From Bacteroidota bacterium (GTDB taxonomy: Bacteria > Bacteroidota > JABWAT01), in NCBI GenBank assembly GCA_013360915.1, contig JABWAT010000002.1:258098-322097 (forward strand): a DNA stretch of 64,000 bases. Direction: 5' to 3'. The notes beneath the pieces are model-generated. The model was not told where the DNA came from and did no database searches. It was given only the letters and a program-made list of their open reading frames with translations. Each line of letters opens with the position of its first letter. Positions within the stretch are counted from its first letter, which is position 1. The translations under genes and the position numbers were made by a program. This document shows, one piece after another, positions 1 through 13,561 of this stretch.

Positions 1-41
1 ATTCGTAATTATAGGTATTACTTTGGTACATCGCAGTATCA

Positions 42-908
42 ATGCCAGAAGGTATTATGCTAATGAAAAATGATCATGGAGATGTATATATTGTTTATCG
101 AATTTATCCTAAAATATCAAAGGAGCCAATTTACTTTACAGATAAGGAATCGCTTGTATCAGAAACTTTAAGATCATTCAGAAGGGCTCTGGGCGATTTA
201 AAATATCATATCAATTTTATCTTAGATAATTGTCCAACTAACTATGAATCAATTATTTATAGTATATTTGATAAATCAAACATTTGCATAAACAATGTTA
301 TAAATGGTGGCAATGTAGGGACATTTATTATTCAAATTGATTCGGCTTTAGCGAATAAATATTCGGATATTATATATTTTGCAGAGGATGATTATTATTA
401 TACAGATAAATCACTTGAGCATGGATATAACCACATTATTCAAAATCCTGAAATTGACTTTCTCACACTATATTTTAATCCGGATTATCTCGAGCATTCT
501 ATTCACCTGCCCTATTTTGATAAAGAGGTCTACAAAAGGGAAAATTGGATCGATGTATCAACAACATGTCTGACTTTCTTTGCGAGAAGGGCATCCCTTG
601 TGAGGGCTATGCCACACTTTCTTACCTATAAAAAAAATAATTATGATTCAAGTATATTTTTATCATTAACAAAACTTGGTCTTTTCTCAAAACTACTTTA
701 TTGGAATTTACTCAAAGATATGTTTGAAGGAAAAAACGAAGTTCTAAAAATTGTAGCGAAAACTTTCTTATTCGGATTTTACCAGGTTTTGCTGGGGAGC
801 AGGTATAAACTTGTCTCAACAACAAAGCCCATTGCTACTCACCTTCAAAGTGACAGGCTTTCTCCTGGTGCTGATTGGCTTGAGATTATTTTAAGAAGTA
901 AAACCTAA
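42..908 (+). CDS. putative GT-A fold glycosyltransferase (AT-rich cassette)
   Basis: 288-aa ORF with an acidic DxD-like motif (FAEDDYYY). Lies in the AT-rich block at the head of the polysaccharide locus. No stronger family assignment is possible by eye. Confidence 0.4.
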   Translation: MPEGIMLMKNDHGDVYIVYRIYPKISKEPIYFTDKESLVSETLRSFRRALGDLKYHINFILDNCPTNYESIIYSIFDKSNICINNVINGGNVGTFIIQIDSALANKYSDIIYFAEDDYYYTDKSLEHGYNHIIQNPEIDFLTLYFNPDYLEHSIHLPYFDKEVYKRENWIDVSTTCLTFFARRASLVRAMPHFLTYKKNNYDSSIFLSLTKLGLFSKLLYWNLLKDMFEGKNEVLKIVAKTFLFGFYQVLLGSRYKLVSTTKPIATHLQSDRLSPGADWLEIILRSKT

Positions 909-934
909 AAGGAGTCCCAAAAAGAAATACTACT

Positions 935-2326
935 GTGATATCTAAATTTAATCCGGGACAGAACATTGTATTGGTAGGATTAACACAGATTTCTGATCCA
1001 CTGCTAAATTTTCTAATTGTACAACAGCTGGCGCTTGTATTAGAACAATCTGAATTTGGCTGGTATGGTTATGTTATTTCCTTGCTGGGTATATCCTCGA
1101 AGATTAGTGATTTTTCATCGAACACTATTCTTGTTAGGGAGTATTGCAAAGAATATAATAGAATAGTTGTTTCAAGTTATTTTTCTGTAAGAGTAATTCT
1201 TATCTTAATTTCGCTTATTTTATTTGTTATTATTTCGTGGAATACAATCGAAGTAGGGCACCAATTACTTCCGTTTCTTGTCTTGCTGCTTCTGTTTCTG
1301 CCAAGAATTGATAGTTTACGATCGACTGTTAATTCTATAGCGCGTTCCCAATTCCTGAGCTCTAATATTCTATATGTTACTGTTGTAGAAGGCTTTCTTG
1401 TTTTACTGGTTATTATTTTAGGTTCCAAATTAAGTATATTTTCAATTACCTATTTTATTATTTCAATATCATTTGTATATACAATTGGAACACTCTATTT
1501 GTTTTCAAGGATAGGATTCAGTTTAAGGGAAATATTCATCTTTCCAAAGATTGGCACAATTACTTCCGTGATTAGGCAGTCTTCACCTTTAATTATAATT
1601 ACAATTAGTGATTTGGTAATCAACAGTGGAATAATAGTATATATAAAAATGAGATATGGTTATACAAGTACTGCTGAATTTAGTGTTGTTCAGCGCTTGT
1701 ATCTTCCACTTATGTTTATTCCTGCCAGTATTGCATATGGAATGGTTCCATTTTGGGTGAATCAACAAACCGTATCATTAACAAAGTGTTCAATTATTAG
1801 AACATTAAACTGGTTAGTAGTTACTGGTTTGATAATACTGGGATTTATTATAGGATATCGTAATGAAATATTAGGTGGGCTTTTTGGTTCAAATTATATT
1901 GATAGTTCAACTACTCTCTTGTATATATATTACTCAGTTCCAGCAGCCTTTATATCCTTTTTCATAGGTGAGTATTTGATAGCTGTTGGCAAGACAATGG
2001 AAGTGATCGTTAGTAGATTATTTAATATTATTGTCTTCATTGTGATTGTACTTGCTTTTGGTAATTCTCTTGAAGCTATTGCGTTGGCTTTTTCAATCGC
2101 AACACTTTGTGGTTCGATATATTTGCTTGTTAAGTGTAAGCAGAGTATAAGTCTGAGAGAAATATCACGAGAAGATTTATCACTCTATATATTCCCAATG
2201 ATTCTCTTTATTTGTATTAATTATTTAAAATCGTCTGTAATATTATGGATTGTTCCCTTTAGTTTAATTTATTTGTTAGTAACATACAAATCTGGAATAT
2301 TTCGGATAAATTATGTTGGAAAATAA
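935..2326 (+). CDS. multi-TM polysaccharide flippase (Wzx-like) or polymerase-like membrane protein
   Basis: 463-aa ORF, very hydrophobic with roughly 12 predicted TM segments. Sits between glycosyltransferases in the AT-rich region. Confidence 0.5.
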   Translation: MISKFNPGQNIVLVGLTQISDPLLNFLIVQQLALVLEQSEFGWYGYVISLLGISSKISDFSSNTILVREYCKEYNRIVVSSYFSVRVILILISLILFVIISWNTIEVGHQLLPFLVLLLLFLPRIDSLRSTVNSIARSQFLSSNILYVTVVEGFLVLLVIILGSKLSIFSITYFIISISFVYTIGTLYLFSRIGFSLREIFIFPKIGTITSVIRQSSPLIIITISDLVINSGIIVYIKMRYGYTSTAEFSVVQRLYLPLMFIPASIAYGMVPFWVNQQTVSLTKCSIIRTLNWLVVTGLIILGFIIGYRNEILGGLFGSNYIDSSTTLLYIYYSVPAAFISFFIGEYLIAVGKTMEVIVSRLFNIIVFIVIVLAFGNSLEAIALAFSIATLCGSIYLLVKCKQSISLREISREDLSLYIFPMILFICINYLKSSVILWIVPFSLIYLLVTYKSGIFRINYVGK

Positions 2327-3242
2327 CCCTGTTATTTCTTTTATACTTATAAATTATAATTCTGATGTATTTCTAAATAATATAGTACGTGAGATAATAA
2401 CCAAAGTACACAAGGTTTTGTTCGAGATTGTAGTATTTGAGAATTGCTCAACGGAACAGCAGGATTTTTCGGAAATCGAAAAAATAGGACAAGTACGATT
2501 AATAAAATCATTTAAAAATCTTGGTTTTGGAAGGGGATGTAATGAGGCTGTACAACACGCCAAGGGTGATTACTTCATTTTTATTAATCCTGATACAGAA
2601 ATTGTTAATCTTGATTTAATCTATTTACTCGAACTTATTCGGAATAAAGAGATTGGAGTTCTGGGAATACAACATGTCGATAGTACTAATAGTAGAGTAA
2701 TTTCTGTTCGACCTTTTTGTGGAGTCAGGCAGGCATTATTTGAATTATTTTGGTTGAATCGTCTTGTTGATTGGTTCAATTCCAAGCGAATTGATTTTTC
2801 AGTCCGAAACAGAGGCTACGCTGAGGTTGATTTTGTCTCTGGTGCATTTATGCTCATCAGAAAACCAGTTTTTAAGGAAATGAATGGTTTTGATCCCTTT
2901 TATTTTATGTATGTAGAAGAAGCCGATTTTGCATGGCGACTTAAAAAATCAGGATATAAAAATATTTTTGTTCCATCACAAGTTATCCGTCATTTCCAGG
3001 GAAAAAGTGTAAAGAATTATATCTTTGAACTTGAGAATAATCACCGTAATCAGATTTACTTTGTTTTTAAATTTCGAGGATTGGTGTCTGCAATTCTTTT
3101 TACTTGCATCCAATCATTAAATAAAGCTATACGAGGAATAGTTTATTTATTATTCGGTCTATTATCGGATTCAGTACAAAATAAAAAGAAAGGTTTTGCC
3201 TTTTTACAGGTTGCCAAAATTTATTGGTGGAGTAAAAAATGA
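2313..3242 (+). CDS. glycosyltransferase family 2
   Basis: N-terminus ISFILINYNS is typical of GT2. FINPD (DxD-like) motif and C-terminal FAWRLKKSGY region resemble rhamnosyltransferase-type GT2. Overlaps the upstream ORF by 14 nt. Confidence 0.75.
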   Translation: MLENNPVISFILINYNSDVFLNNIVREIITKVHKVLFEIVVFENCSTEQQDFSEIEKIGQVRLIKSFKNLGFGRGCNEAVQHAKGDYFIFINPDTEIVNLDLIYLLELIRNKEIGVLGIQHVDSTNSRVISVRPFCGVRQALFELFWLNRLVDWFNSKRIDFSVRNRGYAEVDFVSGAFMLIRKPVFKEMNGFDPFYFMYVEEADFAWRLKKSGYKNIFVPSQVIRHFQGKSVKNYIFELENNHRNQIYFVFKFRGLVSAILFTCIQSLNKAIRGIVYLLFGLLSDSVQNKKKGFAFLQVAKIYWWSKK

Positions 3243-4444
3243 AAATTCTGCAGATTTCTCCGCAGGTTCCCTTTCCACCAAATGATGGGGGGCGTATCAG
3301 CATTCATGGCATCCTGACATCTATGGCCTCTCTGGGCCACCAGTTACATTTTTTGACCTATGCAAAGGAGTGGTCAGTTTTGGATGCAGAAAAGATTATT
3401 GGTCCATTCGCCACTCCACATATTATCAGCTTTCATCCCAAGCATAATGTATCTGGTGGAATACTGAATTTATTCTCTCCCATTCCATATAATATCGAGA
3501 AATTTCATCGGAATGAATTCCTGAAAGTTGTTCAGGAAATTATCGCCAACGAGTCGATCGACGTGGTTCATATTGACCATTTGCATATGGGGTGGGTTGT
3601 GCATTGGTTGAAGGCAAACACAAAGATTCCAGTTGTTTTACGTCAGCATAATCTGGAAATGCGGATTATGAAACGGTACGCAGAACAGGAAACCAATTGG
3701 ATGATCAGGACATATGCTAATCTTCAATATAGAAAGCTCCTGAAATACGAACCAACAATTTGTGCCATGTTTGATGCTGTCGTCATGATTTCTGATTCCG
3801 ATGAGGTGGAATTACGTCAATTAAATCCCACAGTTAAGGCAATGACAATCCCAAGCGGTATATCATCTGCTTTGCTTGAACGAAAAATCGGTAAGACTAC
3901 CGGTATTAAAATTGCTCATATTGGTGCCATGGATTGGGCACCTAACCGGGATTCTCTTTTATCATTTATTTCACTCCATTTGCCTGAAATTATACGACAG
4001 TTTCCTGAATTGAAACTGGTTGCCATTGGAAGGGGAACAGACCAGATTGAAATCCCCGATCCGTTGAAATCCTTTGTTGATGCCAAAGGTTTTGTTGGTG
4101 ATGTTTGGAAGGAATTGGATTCTTGTATTGCTCTGGTTGTTCCTCTGCGGATCGGTGGGGGAATACGTATCAAAATATTAGAAATGATGGCTGCCGGTAT
4201 TCCTGTGATATCTTCAACTGTTGGTGCAGAAGGTTTGCCCTTTGTGTCTGGTAAAATAGGGTTTATTGCCGACTCCTCATCGGAGTATTGTGCTGCAATC
4301 CAACAATTAATACAGACTCCCGGAAAAAGAGAACAAATCATTATGTCTGCACGACATACCATTAGAGAACAGCATACATGGGAAATTATTGGTGGTCGGT
4401 TTGAACAATTATACATACAATTAATAAAGAACAAGGGATCCTGA
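3239..4444 (+). CDS. glycosyltransferase family 4 (GT-B)
   Basis: MKILQISPQ...PPNDGGR N-terminus and C-terminal E-x7-E-like region EMMAAGIPVISSTVGAEG. ATGA overlap with the upstream gene. Confidence 0.75.
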   Translation: MKILQISPQVPFPPNDGGRISIHGILTSMASLGHQLHFLTYAKEWSVLDAEKIIGPFATPHIISFHPKHNVSGGILNLFSPIPYNIEKFHRNEFLKVVQEIIANESIDVVHIDHLHMGWVVHWLKANTKIPVVLRQHNLEMRIMKRYAEQETNWMIRTYANLQYRKLLKYEPTICAMFDAVVMISDSDEVELRQLNPTVKAMTIPSGISSALLERKIGKTTGIKIAHIGAMDWAPNRDSLLSFISLHLPEIIRQFPELKLVAIGRGTDQIEIPDPLKSFVDAKGFVGDVWKELDSCIALVVPLRIGGGIRIKILEMMAAGIPVISSTVGAEGLPFVSGKIGFIADSSSEYCAAIQQLIQTPGKREQIIMSARHTIREQHTWEIIGGRFEQLYIQLIKNKGS

Positions 4445-5607
4445 TGGAACTGGTTTCCCTGGTTTTTATCGGAGTATCATTTTTGCTGGTCATATACAGC
4501 TATGTCGGATATCCATTTTTTCTGCATTTCCGGGTAAAAAAAGGGCCGGTGCTTCAGCGTCCGCCGGAAGTAGCTGAACAGCCCACTATCTCGATGATCA
4601 TTTCACTGTACAACGAGGAGTCTGTCATATCCGAAAAACTGGCAAACATTAATTCCATCGACTACCCCACTGACAAACTGACCGTTTTTTTTGGTCTTGA
4701 TTCCTGCAGCGATCATACAGAAGAACTTATCAGGTCCACACCGCTAAAATTTCCAGTCCGTTTGATTCATTATCCTGAACGACGGGGAAAAATCTTTGTT
4801 CTATTTGATCTGGTTATGGAGGCAAAGTCGGAATTGTTATTTTTTTCCGATGGTAATACCATGTTGCAACCGGATGCAATCCGAAACATGACGCCATGGT
4901 TTCAGAACCCGGTAATAAATGGAGTATGTGGGATGTTGTCTCTGGTTCCCAAGGGTGAAATGAAATGGAATGAAGTATTGTATTGGGACTATGAAACAAG
5001 AATAAAGTCAGATGAAGGCTCCCTGGGGTATTGCATTGGAGCCAATGGTGGAAATTACCTGATACGAAAATCCGCCTTTCCTTTCAGTTTGGGGCCTGGT
5101 TTGTATACTGACGATTTTGTGATTGGTCTGGCATCCCTTCTGGATGGGGGGCAGTTTGTTTTCGATTCTAAATCGAAAGCAATCGAGGAAGATACAGGTA
5201 ATCGTCGTGTTGAATTCAAGCGAAAAATCAGAATTGGAAAATCCAATCTGTCCACACTGATCTATATCAGAAGTTGGTTCCGGCGTCTCTCTTTGACTCC
5301 GGTTTTCTTTTTGATCTCACATAAAATGTTAAGATGGCTTGTCCCACTGGTAATGGTTTTTGTCTCTTTGCTACTCGTAGTTAATACTGTTATTTTTGGC
5401 TCTTTTTGGTGTTATTTATGTGGAGTGGTTCTTTTTGCCCATCTGCTTTCGACCATTCTCTTTCTTATGCCTGCCAGTAAATTTCCCGTAAGATTCATTG
5501 ATTCAGCTCTCTACATCATTCTGATGAACTGGGCTTTGTTTTTTGGGTATGTGAGGTTCTTCCTAGGTTCGAGAGAGTCGTTCTGGTCATCAACTATCAG
5601 AAAATGA
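4444..5607 (+). CDS. membrane-bound glycosyltransferase family 2 (synthase-like)
   Basis: N-terminal TM, then PTISMIISLYNEE GT2 core, DSCSD and FSDGNT acidic motifs, and a C-terminal multi-TM region. Confidence 0.65.
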   Translation: MELVSLVFIGVSFLLVIYSYVGYPFFLHFRVKKGPVLQRPPEVAEQPTISMIISLYNEESVISEKLANINSIDYPTDKLTVFFGLDSCSDHTEELIRSTPLKFPVRLIHYPERRGKIFVLFDLVMEAKSELLFFSDGNTMLQPDAIRNMTPWFQNPVINGVCGMLSLVPKGEMKWNEVLYWDYETRIKSDEGSLGYCIGANGGNYLIRKSAFPFSLGPGLYTDDFVIGLASLLDGGQFVFDSKSKAIEEDTGNRRVEFKRKIRIGKSNLSTLIYIRSWFRRLSLTPVFFLISHKMLRWLVPLVMVFVSLLLVVNTVIFGSFWCYLCGVVLFAHLLSTILFLMPASKFPVRFIDSALYIILMNWALFFGYVRFFLGSRESFWSSTIRK

Positions 5608-5608
5608 C

Positions 5609-6994
5609 ATGATAAAAATCATTTTTGCCTTCATCCTCCTCTTCGATCTGCTCGCCTTTAATTTGTCCTGGTGGGGGTATTACACCATCCGGACGATGGT
5701 TCAACCCGATGAGTTTTCCATTGTTCCCGAGCAGTTATGGGTCACGTCGGTGATCATGTCAGGGTATTGGTTTCTGATTTTCTTCCTGAGTGGGATGTAC
5801 CAGGTCCGGCTGATTGTTTCCCGTTTTGATGAAGCCATTCAACTGGTGAAAACAACCTTAATCGGTACCCTTATCATCGCCTTTCTTATTTTTCTGGATG
5901 AGGCAAGGGTTTCGCAGATTGCTGACGTGCGGCTGGTGATTCTGCTTTACTGGTTGGTACTGATGGCGCTGACCCTTGGTTTCCGGCTGACCATACGGAC
6001 TATTCAGCGGCATATGGTTGTGACCGGCCGGCTGGCACGCCGGACCATCGTGATCGGGTCGGGGAAAAAGGCCATTCTGGCTGCCAGAAATGTAAATCAG
6101 TACCCGGCACTCGGGTATCATTTCATCGGGTTTGTGCTTCAGGGAAAACCAACGGTCGACCTGACCCCTGCATTGGGTGATGTGAAGGAGCTGAAAGATC
6201 TGATTAAGTCGGAGCAGGTGGAGGAAATCATTGTTGCCATCGAAACCGATGACCGGCCGTTCCTTTCAGAGGTCCTTTCGACGGTTAACGGGGGACGGGT
6301 GGGTGTCAAAATCATTCCCGATTTATATGATGTGGTATCCGGCCAGGCCAGAACTCAGCAGATATACGGGTTCCCGCTGATCGATCTGAATCCGAACTTT
6401 CTTACACCCTTTGAAAAGGCGGCTAAACGAGCGTTCGATGTGGTTTTTTCTTTGTTATTTCTGCTGGCTGCCTCTCCCGTCATGTTGTTGAGTGCGCTGA
6501 TTATCCGGTTGGAAAGCAAGGGTCCTGTGTTTTTCATTCAGGAACGGGTCGGCCGGAATGGCAGACCGATCCGGGTGATCAAGTTCCGGTCCATGGTGGT
6601 AGATGCAGAAAAGCACACCGGTCCGGTTCTGGCAACGAAAGATGACCCGCGGATCACCCGTTGGGGTCGGTTTATGCGGAAAACCCGGATTGATGAATTT
6701 CCTCAATTATTCAACGTGCTGAAAGGGGATATGTCGGTGGTGGGTCCCCGGCCGGAGCGGCAGCATTTCATCGATAAGTACCGGGATCTTGTTCCGTTTT
6801 ATGAACGCAGGCTGAAAGTTCAGCCAGGAATCACGGGCCTGGCTCAGGTGAAGGGAAGTTATGAGAATTCGCTTGAAGATGTCTTTGAAAAGTTAAAATT
6901 CGACCTGTACTACATTGAGAATATGTCCTTTAAAATGGATATGACGATTCTGTTTCATACGGTATTTACGATGCTTCGCATGAAAGGGCAGTGA
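5609..6994 (+). CDS. exopolysaccharide polyprenyl glycosylphosphotransferase (WbaP/WcaJ family priming sugar transferase)
   Basis: N-terminal TMs and a CoA-binding-like central domain. C-terminal bacterial sugar transferase signature KRAFD...PGITGLAQV with DEFPQL...GDMSVVGPRPE. Confidence 0.85.
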   Translation: MIKIIFAFILLFDLLAFNLSWWGYYTIRTMVQPDEFSIVPEQLWVTSVIMSGYWFLIFFLSGMYQVRLIVSRFDEAIQLVKTTLIGTLIIAFLIFLDEARVSQIADVRLVILLYWLVLMALTLGFRLTIRTIQRHMVVTGRLARRTIVIGSGKKAILAARNVNQYPALGYHFIGFVLQGKPTVDLTPALGDVKELKDLIKSEQVEEIIVAIETDDRPFLSEVLSTVNGGRVGVKIIPDLYDVVSGQARTQQIYGFPLIDLNPNFLTPFEKAAKRAFDVVFSLLFLLAASPVMLLSALIIRLESKGPVFFIQERVGRNGRPIRVIKFRSMVVDAEKHTGPVLATKDDPRITRWGRFMRKTRIDEFPQLFNVLKGDMSVVGPRPERQHFIDKYRDLVPFYERRLKVQPGITGLAQVKGSYENSLEDVFEKLKFDLYYIENMSFKMDMTILFHTVFTMLRMKGQ

Positions 6995-7055
6995 AAAAGT
7001 CTATTAACCACGAAGGACACAAAGGGGTTTAAAAAGGGCACTAAGAATTAACACA

Positions 7056-7427
7056 ATGGATGATGAACATATTATCAGGAAGATTTTGGATTGCTCCTTT
7101 AAAGTTCACAAGACCTTAGGCCCGGGATTATTGGAATCTGCTTATGAAGAGTGCCTTAACTATGAGTTAGTTAAATCTGGGTTAAGGATCGAAAGGCAAA
7201 AGGGACTTCCGATTGTTTATGAAGAAATTCATATCGGCGTTGGCTATCGACTTGATCTTTTAGTGGAAAGCAGAATCATCGTTGAAATTAAGGCGGTCGA
7301 ATGTCTTCTTGATGTTCATTACGCTCAAATAATCACCTATTTGAAATTGTCAAATCTGAAACTTGGTCTTTTAATTAACTTCAATACAAAACTATTGAAA
7401 AATGGAATTCATCGTATCATTAATTAA
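7056..7427 (+). CDS. GxxExxY family protein (PD-(D/E)XK-like)
   Basis: 123 aa. The GPGLLESAY motif matches G-x-x-E-x-x-Y. More AT-rich than the flanking genes. Confidence 0.65.
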   Translation: MDDEHIIRKILDCSFKVHKTLGPGLLESAYEECLNYELVKSGLRIERQKGLPIVYEEIHIGVGYRLDLLVESRIIVEIKAVECLLDVHYAQIITYLKLSNLKLGLLINFNTKLLKNGIHRIIN

Positions 7428-7430
7428 TCA

Positions 7431-7463
7431 CTTTGTGATCTTTTTAATTACTTGGTGATCTTT
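7431..7463 (+). promoter_or_regulatory. 13-nt direct repeat (CTTkGTGATCTTT x2, 20-nt spacing) upstream of the aminotransferase gene
   Basis: CTTTGTGATCTTT at 7431-7443 and CTTGGTGATCTTT at 7451-7463, about 35 nt upstream of the ATG at 7496. Confidence 0.3.
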
Positions 7464-7495
7464 GTGGTTAGAAAAAGTTAAAAAGGTAGCCTACT

Positions 7496-8599
7496 ATGTC
7501 TATTTCGATGGTTGATCTGAAAAACCAGTACCTGAAAATCAAGCCAGAGGTCGATGCGGCCATTCAGAAGGTGCTTGATACAACCGCGTATATTGGTGGT
7601 CCTGATTGCGGAGAACTGGAATGTGAACTGGCTGGTTATCACGGTGTGAAACATGCCATCGGGTGTGCAAACGGAACCGATGCCCTGCAGATTGCCATGA
7701 TGGCCCTTGGAATCGGACCGGGTGATGAAGTGGTGACCACCGCCTTTTCCTTCGTGGCCACTACCGAAACCATTGCTGTGACCGGTGCACGTCCGGTTTA
7801 TGTGGATATCCATCCGAAAACCTTTAATATGGATCCGTCTAAACTGGAAGCGGCCATTACGGCCCGCACCAAAGCCATCATTCCCGTTCATCTGTACGGA
7901 CAACCAGCCGATATGGATGAGATTCTGCAGATTGCGGCCAAATACCGTCTGCCGGTGATTGAAGACAATGCCCAATCGATCGGAGCCTTGTACAAAGGGA
8001 AAAAAGCCGGGTCCATGGGACTGATTTCCACGACTTCTTTCTATCCTGCTAAAAACCTGGGTTGTTTTGGTGATGGTGGTATGATTTTCACCAATGATGA
8101 CCGTCTGGCCGAGAAACTGCGGATGATTGCCAATCACGGATCCCGGAAACGATATTACCATGAAATACTGGGACTGAACAGCCGTCTTGATACCATTCAG
8201 GCGGCCGTCCTGCGGGTGAAACTCAAATACCTCGATCAGTGGGCCACTGCCCGCCAGCAGGCAGCAGAAACGTATAACCGTCTGCTTTCCGGTTCGGGAG
8301 TGGTAACCCCGTTTCTGGCTCCCGACCGGACTCACGTGTACCATCAGTACTCGATTCTGGCTGATAAACGGTCTGCTCTTCAGGATTTTCTGAAAACCAA
8401 GGGTATTCCCACAGCGGTTCATTACCCGCATGCACTTCATTTGCAACCGGCTTTTTCGAACTATGGATTTATCGCCGGTGATTTTCCGGTGGCTGAAGAT
8501 GCGGCCAGCCGGATTCTCTGTCTGCCTATCCACACTGAAATGACGGCCGAGCAGCTTACCTTCATTTCAGAATCTATTCACCAATTTTATAAATCATGA
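7496..8599 (+). CDS. DegT/DnrJ/EryC1/StrS-family PLP-dependent sugar aminotransferase
   Basis: Conserved N-terminus (L..QY..I..E...A...VL....YIGGP...FE.E.A.Y.G.KHA...NGTDAL) and the ArnB/WecE-like layout. Confidence 0.85.
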   Translation: MSISMVDLKNQYLKIKPEVDAAIQKVLDTTAYIGGPDCGELECELAGYHGVKHAIGCANGTDALQIAMMALGIGPGDEVVTTAFSFVATTETIAVTGARPVYVDIHPKTFNMDPSKLEAAITARTKAIIPVHLYGQPADMDEILQIAAKYRLPVIEDNAQSIGALYKGKKAGSMGLISTTSFYPAKNLGCFGDGGMIFTNDDRLAEKLRMIANHGSRKRYYHEILGLNSRLDTIQAAVLRVKLKYLDQWATARQQAAETYNRLLSGSGVVTPFLAPDRTHVYHQYSILADKRSALQDFLKTKGIPTAVHYPHALHLQPAFSNYGFIAGDFPVAEDAASRILCLPIHTEMTAEQLTFISESIHQFYKS

Positions 8600-9330
8600 G
8601 TACCACTCCACAACCAAACCCGGTTCTGGTCATTGTGCCCACCTATAATGAGGTGGAAAATATTGACCGGCTTCTCTCCAGAATCCGTGCACAGGAAGTT
8701 CCGGTGGATATCCTGTTTATCGATGATAACTCGAAGGATGGCACCTCTGAGAAGATCAAGGCACACATGGCAGCCGATCCGCACATTGCCATTCTGGAAC
8801 GTCCCGGCAAAATGGGATTGGGAACTGCTTATGTGGCAGGTTTCAAGTATGCATTGGAACGTTCCTACCAGTATATCATGGAAATGGATGCCGATCTCAG
8901 CCATGATCCCGGCGAAATTCCCCGGTTTCTTCAGGCCGCTCAGGAGGCTGATATTGTGCTGGGCTCGAGATATATCACCGGTGTGAATGTTATCAATTGG
9001 CCTTTGAAACGACTGATTCTCAGTTATGGTGCCAATGTCTATGCAGGGTTGGTCCTTGGTACCAAAATCAAGGACATGACCGGCGGCTTTAAAATGTTCA
9101 GACGGGAGGTCCTGGAAAGTCTGGATCTGGACCGGTTAAAATCGAACGGATACAGTTTCCAGATTGAAACCACTTACCGTGCCCTTTGCAAGGGTTTTAA
9201 AGTCCGCGAAATCTCCATCATTTTTTACGACCGGACTGCCGGAAGCAGCAAAATGTCCAAAGCCATCGTCAGGGAAGCCATTATGATGGTATGGAAGCTC
9301 CGTCTTCGTCATCTGATCGGGCGGTTATAA
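8596..9330 (+). CDS. polyprenol-phosphate glycosyltransferase, GT2 (DPM1/ArnC-like)
   Basis: VIVPTYNE..NI, IDDNSKDGT and GLGTAYVAGF are diagnostic of dolichyl/undecaprenyl-phosphate sugar synthases. ATGA overlap with the aminotransferase. Confidence 0.8.
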   Translation: MSTTPQPNPVLVIVPTYNEVENIDRLLSRIRAQEVPVDILFIDDNSKDGTSEKIKAHMAADPHIAILERPGKMGLGTAYVAGFKYALERSYQYIMEMDADLSHDPGEIPRFLQAAQEADIVLGSRYITGVNVINWPLKRLILSYGANVYAGLVLGTKIKDMTGGFKMFRREVLESLDLDRLKSNGYSFQIETTYRALCKGFKVREISIIFYDRTAGSSKMSKAIVREAIMMVWKLRLRHLIGRL

Positions 9331-9337
9331 CCCCGGC

Positions 9338-11179
9338 ATGGATGTTTCGGTCATCATTGTCAGCTACAATGTCCGGTCCTACCTGATCAATTGCATCCGG
9401 TCGGTCCAGGAAGCATCGCCCGGCTGGAAGGTGGAGATTATCGTGGTTGATAATGCCTCGGATGATCAGAGTACCGAGGCTGTATCAGCTGCCTTTCCTG
9501 ATGTGAAACTGATACGGAATCCGGTCAATGTCGGATTTGGGGCCGCCTGCAACCAGGGCGTTCAGGTGTCGGCCGGCCGGTATATACTTTTCCTGAATCC
9601 GGATAGTCTGGTGGACCGTCCGGTATTTTCCACCCTGATTCCCTACATGGATGCCAATCCGTCGGTTGGTCTGACGGGCTGCAAAATTCTCAACGAGGAT
9701 GGAACCCTTCAGCCTGCCTGCCGCCGGTCCTTCCCAACCTTATGGGTTTCCTTCACCCGGCTGTCGGGGCTAAGCCGTCTGTTCCCGCACTCCAAGCGGT
9801 TTGCCCGGTACAACCTGACCTATCTGGATGAAAACGAAATGGCTGATATTGACGCAGTATCGGGTGCTTTCATGTTCGTCCGGCGCGAGGCCTTTGACCA
9901 GACAGGCGGTTTTGACGAAGATTATTTCATGTATGGCGAAGACCTGGACTTGTGCTATCAGGTCAGAAAGGCCGGTTTCCGGGTGGTGTATCATCCGGCT
10001 ACCACGGTGATTCATTTCAAAGGCCGCAGCAAATCGGTTCATGTCGATACCCGGTACCATTTCTATGAATCCATGAAAATTTTTGCCCGGAAACATGGCA
10101 GCGGGAATCCGGTCTTTATCGGACTGCTGAATCTGGCCATTACCTTCCGGTATCTGCTTGCAGCCTTCCGTGAACGATCGGCCGGCTTACTGACCGGGCT
10201 GACCGATGTAATCAGTCTGCTGATTCTGTTCGAAAGTCTCAGCGCCATCAGGAATGGCCGGTTGTTCGGATATCCGGATTATGCCTACCCGGTCATATTT
10301 ATTGTTCTGATTTTCGTTCAGGTGGCGGTTTACCTGTCGATGGGCGTCTATGAGTCGGCAACACCCCGCAGGCGGCGGGTGATACTGGCCTCGGTGGTGA
10401 CCTGGGTGATTGTGAGTCTGTCGGCCTATTTTTCAAAAGATTTTGCGTTTTCCCGACTGGTGCTGTTCGGATCCTTCCTGGCGGTAACAGCCACTCATGT
10501 CGGATACCGGGAACTGATCCGGTTAATGAGCCGGGTTCCACAGAGCCGCCGGGTCGTGGTGCTTTCCGGTCCGGATGGATTGGCGGGTTCTCCCTGGTTC
10601 GAACTGAGGGTGGTTTTTCAGCACCGGATGACACTGAAAGGCTATCTGTTCGGGAAACCGGTATCCAATAACAGCCAACAGGTGGAAGGATTGTGGTCCG
10701 ATTTACCCGAACAAATCCGCAAAAACCGGATTACCGATGTGGTTCTGGATACCGGGGTGATGGATTTTCAGGCACAGGTTCACTGGATTCAGTGGTGCAG
10801 GGAAGCGGGTGTTCATGTGGAACTGCTTTCCGTCACCGGTTTGAAAGAGACTCTGTTAAATGATATTTTGCGCCAGCCTGATCGGACCGGACTGGTGTAC
10901 CGGCTGGTTAAACGAATCACCGATTGGTGGGTGATTCGTGGGTTGGGCGTTGCAGGTGAAGGGAGAAAGGAACCCGGAAAATTCTGGATCGGTAATCCCG
11001 ATAAAGCCAGAAGACCGGCAGTCTTTACAGCCCATTACCTGTTAAATGATTGTTTTCCGCAGATTCAACGGGAAGAAGACCGCTATCTGCTGACGCTATT
11101 TTATAACCGGTTCCATTCGGTTGCCATGGACCGGCTGATTATGGAACGACTTGTGAAAAGGAGGGAAGACCGTGCCTAA
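9338..11179 (+). CDS. GT2 glycosyltransferase fused to a multi-TM plus CoA-binding-like C-terminal module
   Basis: N-terminal 300 aa is GT2 ([30 protein letters not shown]). Then about 4 TM helices and a C-terminal region resembling the WbaP central domain ([14 protein letters not shown]...ITDVVLD). Confidence 0.6.
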
Positions 11180-12143
11180 AGTCATTCTGGATTTCGAAAA
11201 ACCTATTTATAATCTCCAGCAGAAAATTGAAGAAATGAGATCCTACCACGTGGAAGGGAACGTGGATCTTTCATCGGAAATTGATCGGCTCGAGAAAAAA
11301 GTCATCGAGCTGAAAAAAAATATTTATTCCAACCTGACCCGCTGGCAGCGGGTGCAGCTGGCCCGTCACCCCGAACGCCCCTACTCACTCGATTATATCT
11401 ACCTGATGTTCAACGATTTTGTGGAGCTGCACGGGGATCGTCAGTTCGGTGATGATAAGGCCATTGTGGGCGGATTTGCCACTTTGAACAAACAGACGGT
11501 TATGGTAGTCGGGCAGCAGAAGGGACGGGACACCAAAACGAACCTGTTGCGGAACTTCGGAATGCCGAATCCGGAAGGATACCGGAAAGCGCTCCGGCTG
11601 TTCAAACTGGCAGAAAAATTTAATAAACCCGTCATTACCCTGATTGATACGCCCGGTGCTTACCCGGGTCTTGAAGCAGAGGAGCGGGGACAGGGTGAAG
11701 CCATCGCCCGTAACCTGTTTGAAATGGCCCGTTTGAAAGTACCCATTGTCTGTGTGGTGATTGGAGAGGGAGCCAGCGGAGGCGCATTGGGTATTGGTGT
11801 CGGCGACCGGCTGATTATGCTTGAAAATACCTGGTACTCAGTCATTTCTCCTGAAAGTTGCTCTTCTATTCTATGGCATAGCTGGGAATTTAAGGAACAG
11901 GCCGCTGAGGCACTTAAACTCACCCCGCCAGATCTGCTGAAACAAAATCTGATTGACCGAATTGTGGAAGAGCCTTTGGGAGGCGCCCATAACAATCCGG
12001 AAGAAGCAGCAAGAAATCTTAAAAAAGCGCTGCTGGAAGAACTGAAATCCCTTAAAAAGCTGTCTTCTGCCGAGCTGGTCAGTTCGCGGATTGATAAATA
12101 CTCCAATATGGGAGTGTACGGGTATCTCGACGCCACCACGTGA
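11172..12143 (+). CDS. accA: acetyl-CoA carboxylase carboxyltransferase subunit alpha
   Basis: [20 protein letters not shown] and GGFA....V.V.GQQKGR are classic AccA motifs. 323 aa. Confidence 0.9.
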
Positions 12144-12550: not shown

Positions 12551-12726
12551 TTCACCCCGATTTACTGAACCTTCTGATCTGTCCTGCCTGCAAGTCGGAC
12601 AAACTGATCTATCAACCTGAACCACAACAACTGACCTGCCAGACCTGCAACCGGGTATATCCCGTGGTGGATGATATTCCAATCATGGTGGCAGACCGTC
12701 CGGATGGGGCCACCCATGCTGAATGA
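12547..12726 (+). CDS. Trm112/YcaR-like small zinc-ribbon protein (not in the ORF track; 59 aa)
   Basis: Translation [20 protein letters not shown]...CQTCNRVYPVVDDIPIM has paired CPxC/CxxC motifs typical of Trm112/UPF0434. Overlaps the ybgC stop and the nadC start. Confidence 0.6.
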   Translation: MIHPDLLNLLICPACKSDKLIYQPEPQQLTCQTCNRVYPVVDDIPIMVADRPDGATHAE

Positions 12727-13561
12727 ACATTCCGTCAGACAGCGGATCCGTCAGGCGCTGGAGGAGGACATCCGTGACGGCGATGTGACCACACTGGCCA
12801 TTATTCCAGCCGGACAGCAATCGACTGCTCTGATCAAAGCGAAAAGCGATGGAGTTCTTTGCGGCACACAGGTGGCCGACTGGGTTTTGCAGGAGTGTGG
12901 CAGCGAAACAGGGTTCACCTGGAACTTTAAAGAAGGTGACAGGCTGGTGACCGGACAGATTGCGGGTACATACAAAGGCCCGACCCGGGTGCTTCTCATG
13001 GCCGAACGGACACTGTTGAATTTCATTCAGCGGATGAGCGGAATTGCGACTCAGACCCGGCGGTTCACCGATCTGGTTTCACATACCTCCTGTAAAATTC
13101 TGGATACCCGGAAAACCGTTCCGGGACTCAGGGATCTTGATAAATACTCGGTAAAAACCGGTGGAGGAACCAATCACCGGATCGGTTTGTATGACATGGT
13201 TCTGATCAAAGATAACCACATTGCTGCGGCCGGATCTGTAACCGAAGCCATTAAACGGGTGCATGCCTGGCAGAAACAGACCGGTCGATTTCCTGACATT
13301 GAAGTGGAAGTGAAAAACCGCCGGGAACTGGCCGAAGTGCTTGCACTGGGCGGAGTTCAACGGATTTTACTGGATAATATGACACTGGCTCAGCTGGCTG
13401 AATGCGTTAAGGAAACCGCGGGCCGCATTCCACTTGAAGCTTCGGGAAACGTGAACCTTGAAACGGTGGCTGGCATTGCCGGTACCGGTGTGGATTTTGT
13501 ATCGGTTGGCTCACTGACCCATTCAGTGACCGCCATGGATCTCTCATTATTAATTGACTAA
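12716..13561 (+). CDS. nadC: nicotinate-nucleotide diphosphorylase (quinolinate phosphoribosyltransferase)
   Basis: ERTLLNFIQRMSGIAT, KILDTRKT.PGLR, VKTGGG.NHR.GLYD..LIKDNHI. Start chosen at MLNEH (12716) rather than the upstream in-frame Met. Confidence 0.85.
   Translation: MLNEHSVRQRIRQALEEDIRDGDVTTLAIIPAGQQSTALIKAKSDGVLCGTQVADWVLQECGSETGFTWNFKEGDRLVTGQIAGTYKGPTRVLLMAERTLLNFIQRMSGIATQTRRFTDLVSHTSCKILDTRKTVPGLRDLDKYSVKTGGGTNHRIGLYDMVLIKDNHIAAAGSVTEAIKRVHAWQKQTGRFPDIEVEVKNRRELAEVLALGGVQRILLDNMTLAQLAECVKETAGRIPLEASGNVNLETVAGIAGTGVDFVSVGSLTHSVTAMDLSLLID

Follow-up and report, generated by a model that had tools for sequence, protein, structure and literature searches.

Introduction

The aspartate of the Asp–Glu dyad of monotopic phosphoglycosyl transferases (monoPGTs) is the covalent nucleophile of these enzymes. 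The dyad is their conserved catalytic dyad (PMC10942596; PMC10186338), and three classes of monoPGTs have been published: SmPGT, LgPGT and BiPGT (PMC11626204; PMC10942596). WbaP, an Lg-PGT, dimerises with itself by means of a module of four transmembrane (TM) helices and a domain called DUF: a hairpin is swapped, and TM3 contributes as well. UMP/UDP is a ligand of the DUF, and PglF-like dehydratases have this module in front of them too (PMC10942596). EpsZ, a true Lg-PGT without the hairpin, is thought to need a partner for dimerisation (PMC12802240). How complexes organise the initial, membrane-bound steps in the assembly of bacterial polysaccharides is an open question, and higher-order organisation is a long-standing goal according to the WbaP work (PMC10942596). 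Here we describe a gene at 9338–11179 of a 64,000-nucleotide (nt) stretch of a Bacteroidota contig (JABWAT010000002.1, positions 258,098 to 322,097; the window is this whole stretch). Its 613-residue product, the fusion, joins a glycosyltransferase family 2 (GT2) domain to a C-terminal module of 360 residues that appears from its sequence to be a catalytically dead, partly eroded paralogue of an Lg-PGT.

The C-terminal module and Lg-PGTs

A first, sequence-only reading of the gene had described an N-terminal GT2 domain followed by about four TM helices and a WbaP-like soluble segment, and this outline holds. The fusion matches Pfam PF00535 over residues 4–231 at 88.6 bits (cut-off 23.3; 5.8e-25). 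Among 36 family sequences, residues D38, D43, N87-P88-D89, E201-D202 and D204 are each invariant or conserved to at least 90%; we take these residues to be the acidic catalytic motifs of GT2 enzymes (DxD-type and the ED catalytic-base region). An AlphaFold2 (AF2) model built on that 36-sequence alignment has a mean pLDDT of 89.3 and a pTM of 0.79. It orders the chain as GT2 domain, long helix 258–306, helices 317–334, 345–365 and 373–397, a β/α domain at 404–497, further helices and two short strands. Hydropathy and the model agree on four TM helices, the first at about 284–306 and the other three coinciding with the helices just listed, and these align with TM1–4 of Lg-PGTs. Submitted whole to Foldseek, the model gives GT2 matches only (GalNAc-T2, hyaluronan synthase and a Leptospira glycosyltransferase (GT), E~1e-12). 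The GT2 domain thus looks like that of an intact, active glycosyltransferase. The protein is identical to database entry P0001, 'MAG: glycosyltransferase [Bacteroidetes bacterium]'.

The identity of the remaining part is established by profiles. Residues 290–497 match positions 3–221 of the 445 of NCBIfam TIGR03025 (E=5e-11), and residues 289–497 match positions 2–226 of TIGR03023 (E=3e-7); these are the families of exopolysaccharide polyprenyl glycosylphosphotransferases and of WcaJ, respectively. Profiles were required because pairwise comparison is too weak here: BLASTP between the fusion and the neighbouring WbaP-like protein, the alignment by which the resemblance was to be checked, finds no significant similarity (E=0.07). 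When a profile of the four closest members is instead compared by hhalign with the neighbouring true PGTs of eight fusion loci, 235 columns align with P=6.9e-5. The alignment spans fusion residues 285–534 and PGT residues 8–281, running through TM1–4 and the DUF, with the TM region placed on PGT residues 8–130 and the fusion's KRITD on KRAFD. The four-TM bundle and the DUF are therein in the same order and register as in Lg-PGTs. CoA_binding_3 gives only a sub-threshold Pfam match in the fusion itself (residues 339–405, 18.4 bits vs 25) and a significant one in its longer relatives.

Since the full-length model returned only GT2 structures, the C-terminal half was modelled separately. Its best structural match is WbaP of Salmonella enterica (PDB 8T53), although the structural matches are modest. 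Searches of PDB sequences by phmmer and hmmsearch with the short-tailed family (the fusion and its close relatives) alone gave nothing useful, and the profile of the wider family described below was needed. That profile matches WbaP in two pieces, 28–306 to 66–352 and 313–390 to 433–519, and so skips about 80 WbaP residues; PglC is matched only from residue 99 onward.

The remnant of the catalytic domain

The sequence-only reading had stated that no sugar-phosphotransferase domain follows the DUF. This is right insofar as no functional domain is apparent and Pfam finds no Bac_transf (PF02397) in the fusion, nor in the tails of four family members searched alone at E<=10. It needs correction insofar as residues ~519–613 are a vestige of that very domain.

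Three grades of tail were compared by alignment. True Lg-PGTs carry, in order, KRxxD, a hydrophobic re-entrant helix, IRLES...KFRSM, DE(L/F)PQ, GPRP, PGxTGLAQ and YYxxNxSxxxDxxI. A family of 640–720-aa proteins keeps KRxxD, the helix, GxxSxVG, PGlTGL and the terminal motif, and lacks about 67 aa together with the dyad and PRP. In the short-tailed family, to which the fusion belongs, a further ~50 aa are missing, and what is kept is KRxxD and a terminal LFYNRFHxxxxD. The tail of the fusion measures 95 aa vs about 190 in Lg-PGTs. Of the catalytic domain it has only the KRxxD start (KRITD, 525–529) and the last ~70 residues, with two short strands and a terminal 12-residue motif.

The alignments put the deletion in the catalytic core at ~67–80 residues. 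In a motif scan of the fusion tail, KFRSM, the Asp–Glu dyad and PRP are absent, the aligned positions being non-acidic or deleted. Over the 20 residues that follow KRxxD, hydropathy averages +2.72 in true PGTs, +1.84 in the longer family and -0.65 in the short-tailed family, where a polar helix follows KRITD; the re-entrant helix is therefore gone in the latter. The linker before the tail is also altered, with ~22 aa absent relative to relatives in a MAFFT alignment, and the AF2 model shows no β-hairpin after the DUF, a helix at 499–512 standing there instead. With re-entrant helix, KFRSM, dyad and PRP gone, the tail would by the known mechanism carry out no phosphosugar transfer.

That such a reduced segment is homologous to a PGT domain at all is argued from profile–profile comparison with shuffled controls, and not from single-sequence hidden Markov model (HMM) scores. 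The tails of the longer family match true PGT catalytic domains with 99.7% probability in hhalign (E=1.5e-26). Short-tailed tails match those of the longer family with a probability of 79%, P=1.6e-5 and a score of 33.2, as compared to a maximum of 17.0 in 200 column shuffles and 12.4 for the reversed alignment; the statistics of this short-tailed profile are moderate, as only 4–6 sequences exist. Compared directly, short tails and true PGT domains do not match significantly (E=0.058), though in the same register, and the link from short tail to PGT is therefore transitive, via the longer family. With the longer-family tail HMM, single short tails score weakly: P0001 reaches 10.4 bits vs a best of 8.7 in 3,000 shuffles, and the other short tails fall within the top ~0.5% of shuffles. 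Taken together, the last ~95 aa are a recognisable remnant of a PGT catalytic domain and not random sequence.

The comparison with described Lg-PGTs (WbaP, WcaJ, EpsZ; TIGR03025/TIGR03023) can now be drawn. Like them, the fusion has four TM helices and then a DUF, KRxxD and a terminal motif of the YYxxNxSxxxDxxI type; unlike them, it has a GT2 domain in front and is without hairpin, re-entrant helix, KFRSM, dyad and PRP. Dehydratases of the PglF/WbpM type share the four TM helices and DUF (3NKL is a related domain). However, their module lies N-terminal to the dehydratase and carries no PGT remnant, while that of the fusion is C-terminal to its enzyme domain, and Pfam finds no Polysacc_synt_2 dehydratase domain in the fusion. 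Because the KRxxD and terminal motifs remain, the module clearly derives from a PGT.

A wider family of GT2-fused PGT relatives

The sequence-only reading suggested a search for the same architecture in other genomes, and it was found widely in its longer form and rarely in its short-tailed form. A full-length family profile retrieves at least 2,882 clusters at 90% identity (E<=1e-40), a count drawn from 8,000 word-sharing candidates that may include proteins matching mainly via GT2. The best 120 members are all 646–711 aa long and nearly all bear Pfam marks for GT2, CoA_binding_3 and Bac_transf, a few being without the last. In this longer family CoA_binding_3 is significant and Bac_transf is partial, limited to profile positions ~94–178 of 179. 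Its hosts are Ignavibacterium album, Ignavibacterium sp. (cultured strains included), Ignavibacteriales and metagenome-assembled genomes (MAGs) of Bacteroidota, and a Kapaibacterium member was also found. The proteins go by generic names such as 'glycosyltransferase', 'GT2 family glycosyltransferase/...' and 'O-antigen biosynthesis protein'; examples are P0131, 'MULTISPECIES: glycosyltransferase [Ignavibacterium]', and the 663-aa P0150, encoded on the complete 3.57-Mb AP026678.1.

DExPQ, GPRP and KFRSM are absent from all of the 116 best family members, whereas GxxSxVG is kept in 113 and the terminal motif in 107. The long-tailed members, too, are without the dyad, and P0022 has E-K in its place. 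Proteins of 650–710 aa resemble the fusion in their orthologous GT2, four TM helices and DUF, in their genomic position and in a PGT domain lacking dyad, PRP and KFRSM; they differ in that hairpin region, hydrophobic re-entrant helix, GxxSxVG and PGlTGL are all retained and Bac_transf still matches in part.

The short-tailed architecture occurs at the same length in at least six cluster representatives at 37–51% identity. The C-terminal profile, used in an exhaustive HMMER search, added just two further close representatives, P0005 and P0006 (~615 aa), together with dozens of 640–720-aa proteins that match over TM helices and DUF from near residue 260. A Genome Taxonomy Database (GTDB) scan with two peptide patterns only found the short form in three species-representative genomes, all 'Bacteroidetes bacterium' MAGs.

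The short-tailed fusion is the most reduced known form of this dead-PGT family. Ignavibacterium and many further lineages carry the same fusion at the corresponding place in the genome, and the gene therefore descends from an old GT2–Lg-PGT-like fusion; the PGT domain of that protein lost its activity first and was then worn down more in the present lineage. An intact GT2–Lg-PGT ancestor was sought among the relatives and none was found.

Proteins of 401–413 aa without GT2 (P0009, P0010, P0055 and others) had been considered as a third architecture, and this was dropped. Seven such entries were noted (P0009, P0010, P0014, P0041, P0055, P0075, P0079). The two examined (loci L016 and L017) start at contig base 1–2 with accA next, and both are therefore fragments. 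Their near-identical lengths imply that assemblies repeatedly break close to the junction of GT2 and TM module, which may be due to the GT2 half belonging to the strain-variable part of the locus.

The domain list of the family invites another interpretation, namely that the fusion is a true bifunctional PGT–GT enzyme, a BiPGT, that primes undecaprenyl phosphate and adds the next sugar. Relatives are annotated with GT2, CoA_binding_3 and Bac_transf, one JGI name being 'GT2 family glycosyltransferase/lipopolysaccharide/colanic/teichoic acid biosynthesis glycosyltra...', and a class with fused GTs has been published (PMC11626204). Like the fusion, BiPGTs unite a glycosyltransferase and PGT-derived sequence in one polypeptide encoded in a glycoconjugate locus (PMC11626204; PMC10942596). 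They are, however, defined by a functional PGT core, whereas that of the fusion is to all appearance dead and a live Lg-PGT is encoded alongside; the GT2 of the fusion is, moreover, attached to an N-terminal module of the Lg-PGT type. The sequences already contradict the bifunctional interpretation. Bac_transf covers only positions ~94–178 in relatives and does not match the fusion at all; dyad, PRP and KFRSM are absent from the short-tailed family and from 116/116 relatives, with ~67–80 core residues deleted. A separate intact Lg-PGT, finally, is always present in the nine distinct loci that were compared for synteny, one of them from a complete Ignavibacterium genome. We consider a bifunctional enzyme very improbable. 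The fusion shares Lg-PGT ancestry and resembles a BiPGT on domain lists, but fails the catalytic features that define one. Matches to GT2, CoA_binding_3 and Bac_transf could get the whole family counted as BiPGTs; the missing dyad shows that this would be wrong.

Selection and integrity of the gene

Substitution rates were estimated from three close homologues, 80–88% identical, and are given by region in Table 1. RLxKRxxD and a 15-residue tail motif are invariant in the four closest members. The whole protein is thus maintained by selection. The accA gene starts at the stop codon of the fusion, overlapping it by 8 nt (11172–11179) if the first GTG is taken as its start; there is therefore no room for a lost domain, and nothing has been cut off.

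These observations bear on the proposal of the sequence-only reading that the gene is a domain-shuffled chimera formed within the locus, and equally on the possibility that the gene is decaying or wrongly assembled, a frameshift having removed its PGT domain. A WbaP-like gene does lie 2.3 kb upstream, and the upstream part of the locus looks foreign in GC. Yet the lack of a significant BLASTP match between the two proteins speaks against recent shuffling, and the same short-tailed architecture recurs in at least six cluster representatives and three GTDB species. The abutting accA and a dN/dS well below 1 throughout speak against decay, and the same fusion occupies the same position in Ignavibacterium and other lineages, a 663-aa Ignavibacterium protein being its positional orthologue. 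Conservation, synteny and dN/dS already contradict a chimera or a decaying gene, and we give either almost no credence.

Table 1. Features of the fusion gene and its neighbours in the window. Residues refer to the fusion; dN/dS values come from three close homologues (80–88% identical), with dS near saturation in two of three pairs.
Feature	Coordinates	Strand	Residues or length	dN/dS	Remarks
Whole fusion gene	9338–11179	+	613 aa plus stop		GT2 joined to putative pseudo-Lg-PGT
GT2 (GT-A fold) catalytic domain	9338–10102	+	1–255	0.03–0.04	Looks catalytically competent
Connecting helix and four-TM-helix bundle	10103–10537	+	256–400	~0.07 (TM bundle)	From hydropathy and AF2 helices
Rossmann-like DUF (CoA_binding_3-like) domain	10538–10831	+	401–498	0.09–0.12	
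Linker helix	10832–10891	+	499–518		Lg-PGTs and 650–710-aa relatives have the β-hairpin region here
Putative vestigial PGT catalytic domain	10892–11176	+	519–613	0.13–0.30 (tail)	
Intact Lg-PGT (priming enzyme)	5609–6994	+	461 aa		KRAFD, KFRSM, DEFPQ, GPRP; PF02397 3.2e-70, PF13727 3.1e-16, TIGR03025 7.4e-133
DegT/DnrJ/EryC1-type sugar aminotransferase	7496–8599	+			PF01041 3.8e-125; in 8/9 loci
Small Dpm1/ArnC/PpgS-like GT2	8596–9330	+	244 aa		No TM helices; PF00535 4.1e-34
accA, acetyl-CoA carboxylase carboxyltransferase alpha	11172–12143	+			PF03255 2.7e-151; housekeeping, 3′ cassette border

A conserved cassette around the fusion

In the nine loci, variable Wzx, Wzy and GT genes are followed by the true Lg-PGT, DegT (8/9), a small GT2, the fusion, accA and 4HBT. 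The cassette lies at the conserved end of a Wzx/Wzy-type polysaccharide locus. The true Lg-PGT (456–472 aa) lies two or three genes upstream of the fusion in all nine. The small GT2 (238–244 aa) is directly upstream of it in every locus but L015, where a PDDEXK_3 gene intervenes. accA follows the fusion in eight of the nine full loci and in both contig-end fragments, a TetR gene taking its place in L012/L013; it is a conserved neighbour marking the 3′ border of the cassette and not part of the system.

The fusion evolves much faster than the adjoining live PGT. The latter is 73% identical to its orthologues in three loci (L001, L004 and L005), vs 49–51% for the fusion from the same genomes, and 37–41% in its C-terminal module.

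The presence of the small GT2 raises the possibility that the dead-PGT module serves it as membrane tether or partner, the cassette making a polyprenyl-phosphate amino-sugar donor. Eukaryotic DPM1 is tethered by DPM3, and the D2 domain of mycobacterial Ppm1 by D1, which provides the analogy. The small GT2 has no TM segment of its own, NCBIfam places it closest to polyprenyl-phosphate sugar synthases (AglJ, PpgS, dolichyl-P hexose transferase, ArnC), and it is found in the same cassette in 9/9 loci, usually with the DegT aminotransferase. The longer relatives, in addition, keep the re-entrant helix, which in PGTs reportedly contacts polyprenyl phosphate, to go by the title of Entova's 2019 paper. 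Nevertheless, all these NCBIfam matches are far below their cut-offs, the short-tailed family has lost the re-entrant helix, and a tether does not account for the fusion's own GT2 domain. We regard this role as improbable.

Several further features of the locus deserve mention. Adjacent genes overlap by 4 nt at DegT and the small GT2 (8596–8599) and at accA and 4HBT (12140–12143), and such short overlaps point to co-transcription of the polysaccharide cassette with housekeeping accA and to translational coupling of the two. A 123-aa ORF of the PD-(D/E)XK nuclease family (7056–7427, + strand; PF13366 PDDEXK_3, 1.9e-42) separates the true PGT from DegT; L001, L004 and L005, the orthologous loci, lack it, and L015 has a PDDEXK_3 gene (6563–6952) inside the same cassette at another junction, that of small GT2 and fusion. 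This pattern looks like repeated insertion of one small gene into the cassette. An ORF of 351 aa antisense to DegT (7478–8533, - strand) is almost certainly a shadow ORF and not a real gene, because the + strand gene is so strongly supported (PF01041, 3.8e-125).

The GC content is 32–35% at 1–4000, 43–47% at 4000–8000 and ~51% in the rest of the window, and the gradient extends into the true PGT gene. The low-GC stretch, at 1–7000, holds a weak GT2-like ORF, a Wzx-like Polysacc_synt gene, a GT2, a GT4 and another GT2; this variable part of the polysaccharide locus looks horizontally exchanged. Beyond the cassette border, just past accA–4HBT(–nadC), several relatives have a second Wzx-like Polysacc_synt gene (L010 14332–15795, L014 10560–12065, L015 10658–12133, L016 3666–5180). 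No second flippase gene was seen downstream of 4HBT in the window up to 14 kb; what follows 4HBT there is a QRPTase-like ORF (12671–13561, so named because it lies where relatives have nadC) and an FKBP-like ORF. tRNA and Rfam scans of the 64-kb window gave nothing at threshold.

Possible role of the dead-PGT module

What, then, would a dead priming enzyme do behind an active GT2? On balance, and with somewhat better than even confidence, we favour the reading in which the fusion is an early-step transferase, an active GT2 anchored, and probably docked or dimerised, via a catalytically dead pseudo-PGT scaffold. By analogy with the same module in WbaP, the dead-PGT part would act as membrane anchor and as dimerisation or docking scaffold, holding the cytoplasmic GT2 domain at the membrane beside the priming PGT, either paired with the Lg-PGT encoded nearby, as a heterodimer, or paired with itself alongside that enzyme. 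The undecaprenyl-PP-sugar freshly made by the PGT would then receive an early sugar from the GT2, probably the second one. The DUF may still sense uridine nucleotides. Longer relatives, with their re-entrant helix, might still bind the polyprenyl chain, and the short-tailed form would not do so in the same way. Docking to the priming enzyme is a good hypothesis, consistent with the strict co-location with a true Lg-PGT (9/9 loci) and with the published dimerisation module of WbaP.

Several points weigh against this reading. Docking and dimerisation of the fusion with the neighbouring PGT are transferred from WbaP by analogy. The β-hairpin that is swapped in WbaP is missing in the short-tailed family, and any dimer must therefore use another interface. 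The role of second-step transferase is suggested by gene position and by general knowledge of related GT2s. Finally, the PGT neighbour changes more slowly than the fusion (73% vs about 50% identity when the same genomes are compared); such a difference is not necessarily what tight, co-evolving partners would show.

The module could also be a plain membrane anchor, a nucleotide-sensing regulator or both, making no specific contact with the priming PGT, so that the GT2 is tethered, perhaps as a homodimer, and tuned by UMP/UDP levels. This accords with the four-TM bundle and DUF being the best-conserved parts of the module and with the binding of UMP/UDP by the WbaP DUF (PMC10942596), and the loss of hairpin and re-entrant helix in the short-tailed family implies that little beyond anchoring is needed. 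One TM helix would do for that purpose, yet a 360-aa module is kept, and even its vestigial tail is under purifying selection (dN/dS 0.13–0.30). The strict adjacency to a true Lg-PGT in 9/9 loci would go unexplained as well, though operon logic alone could give it. We hold an anchor or sensor of this kind to be rather unlikely.

It is tempting to go one step beyond the docked-scaffold reading and to propose that in the GT2-fused dead PGTs a pseudoenzyme branch of the monotopic PGT superfamily is recognised for the first time, one in which the module heterodimerises with a live Lg-PGT and so replaces the homodimer. We offer this tentatively, thinking it more doubtful than not. In the literature searched, no description was found of a catalytically dead PGT or of this fusion architecture; a 2021 sequence similarity network (SSN) paper, outside the search, may list such proteins as fusions. 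The terms 'phosphoglycosyl transferase' and 'pseudoenzyme' were not found combined, and a query for inactive scaffolds returned only a cellulose-synthase review.

Significance

A large natural family in which a GT is joined to an apparently dead priming enzyme, beside a live one, is a ready system for the study of PGT–GT coupling, and experiments are feasible because Ignavibacterium strains carrying the family are cultured. From the dead-PGT family one would also learn which portions of the Lg-PGT accessory module serve a need other than catalysis. If the heterodimer proposal is true, priming enzyme and second glycosyltransferase would form a fixed complex in which the undecaprenyl-PP-sugar is handed from active site to active site, and the short-tailed lineage would represent the minimal scaffold that still supports a PGT/GT complex.

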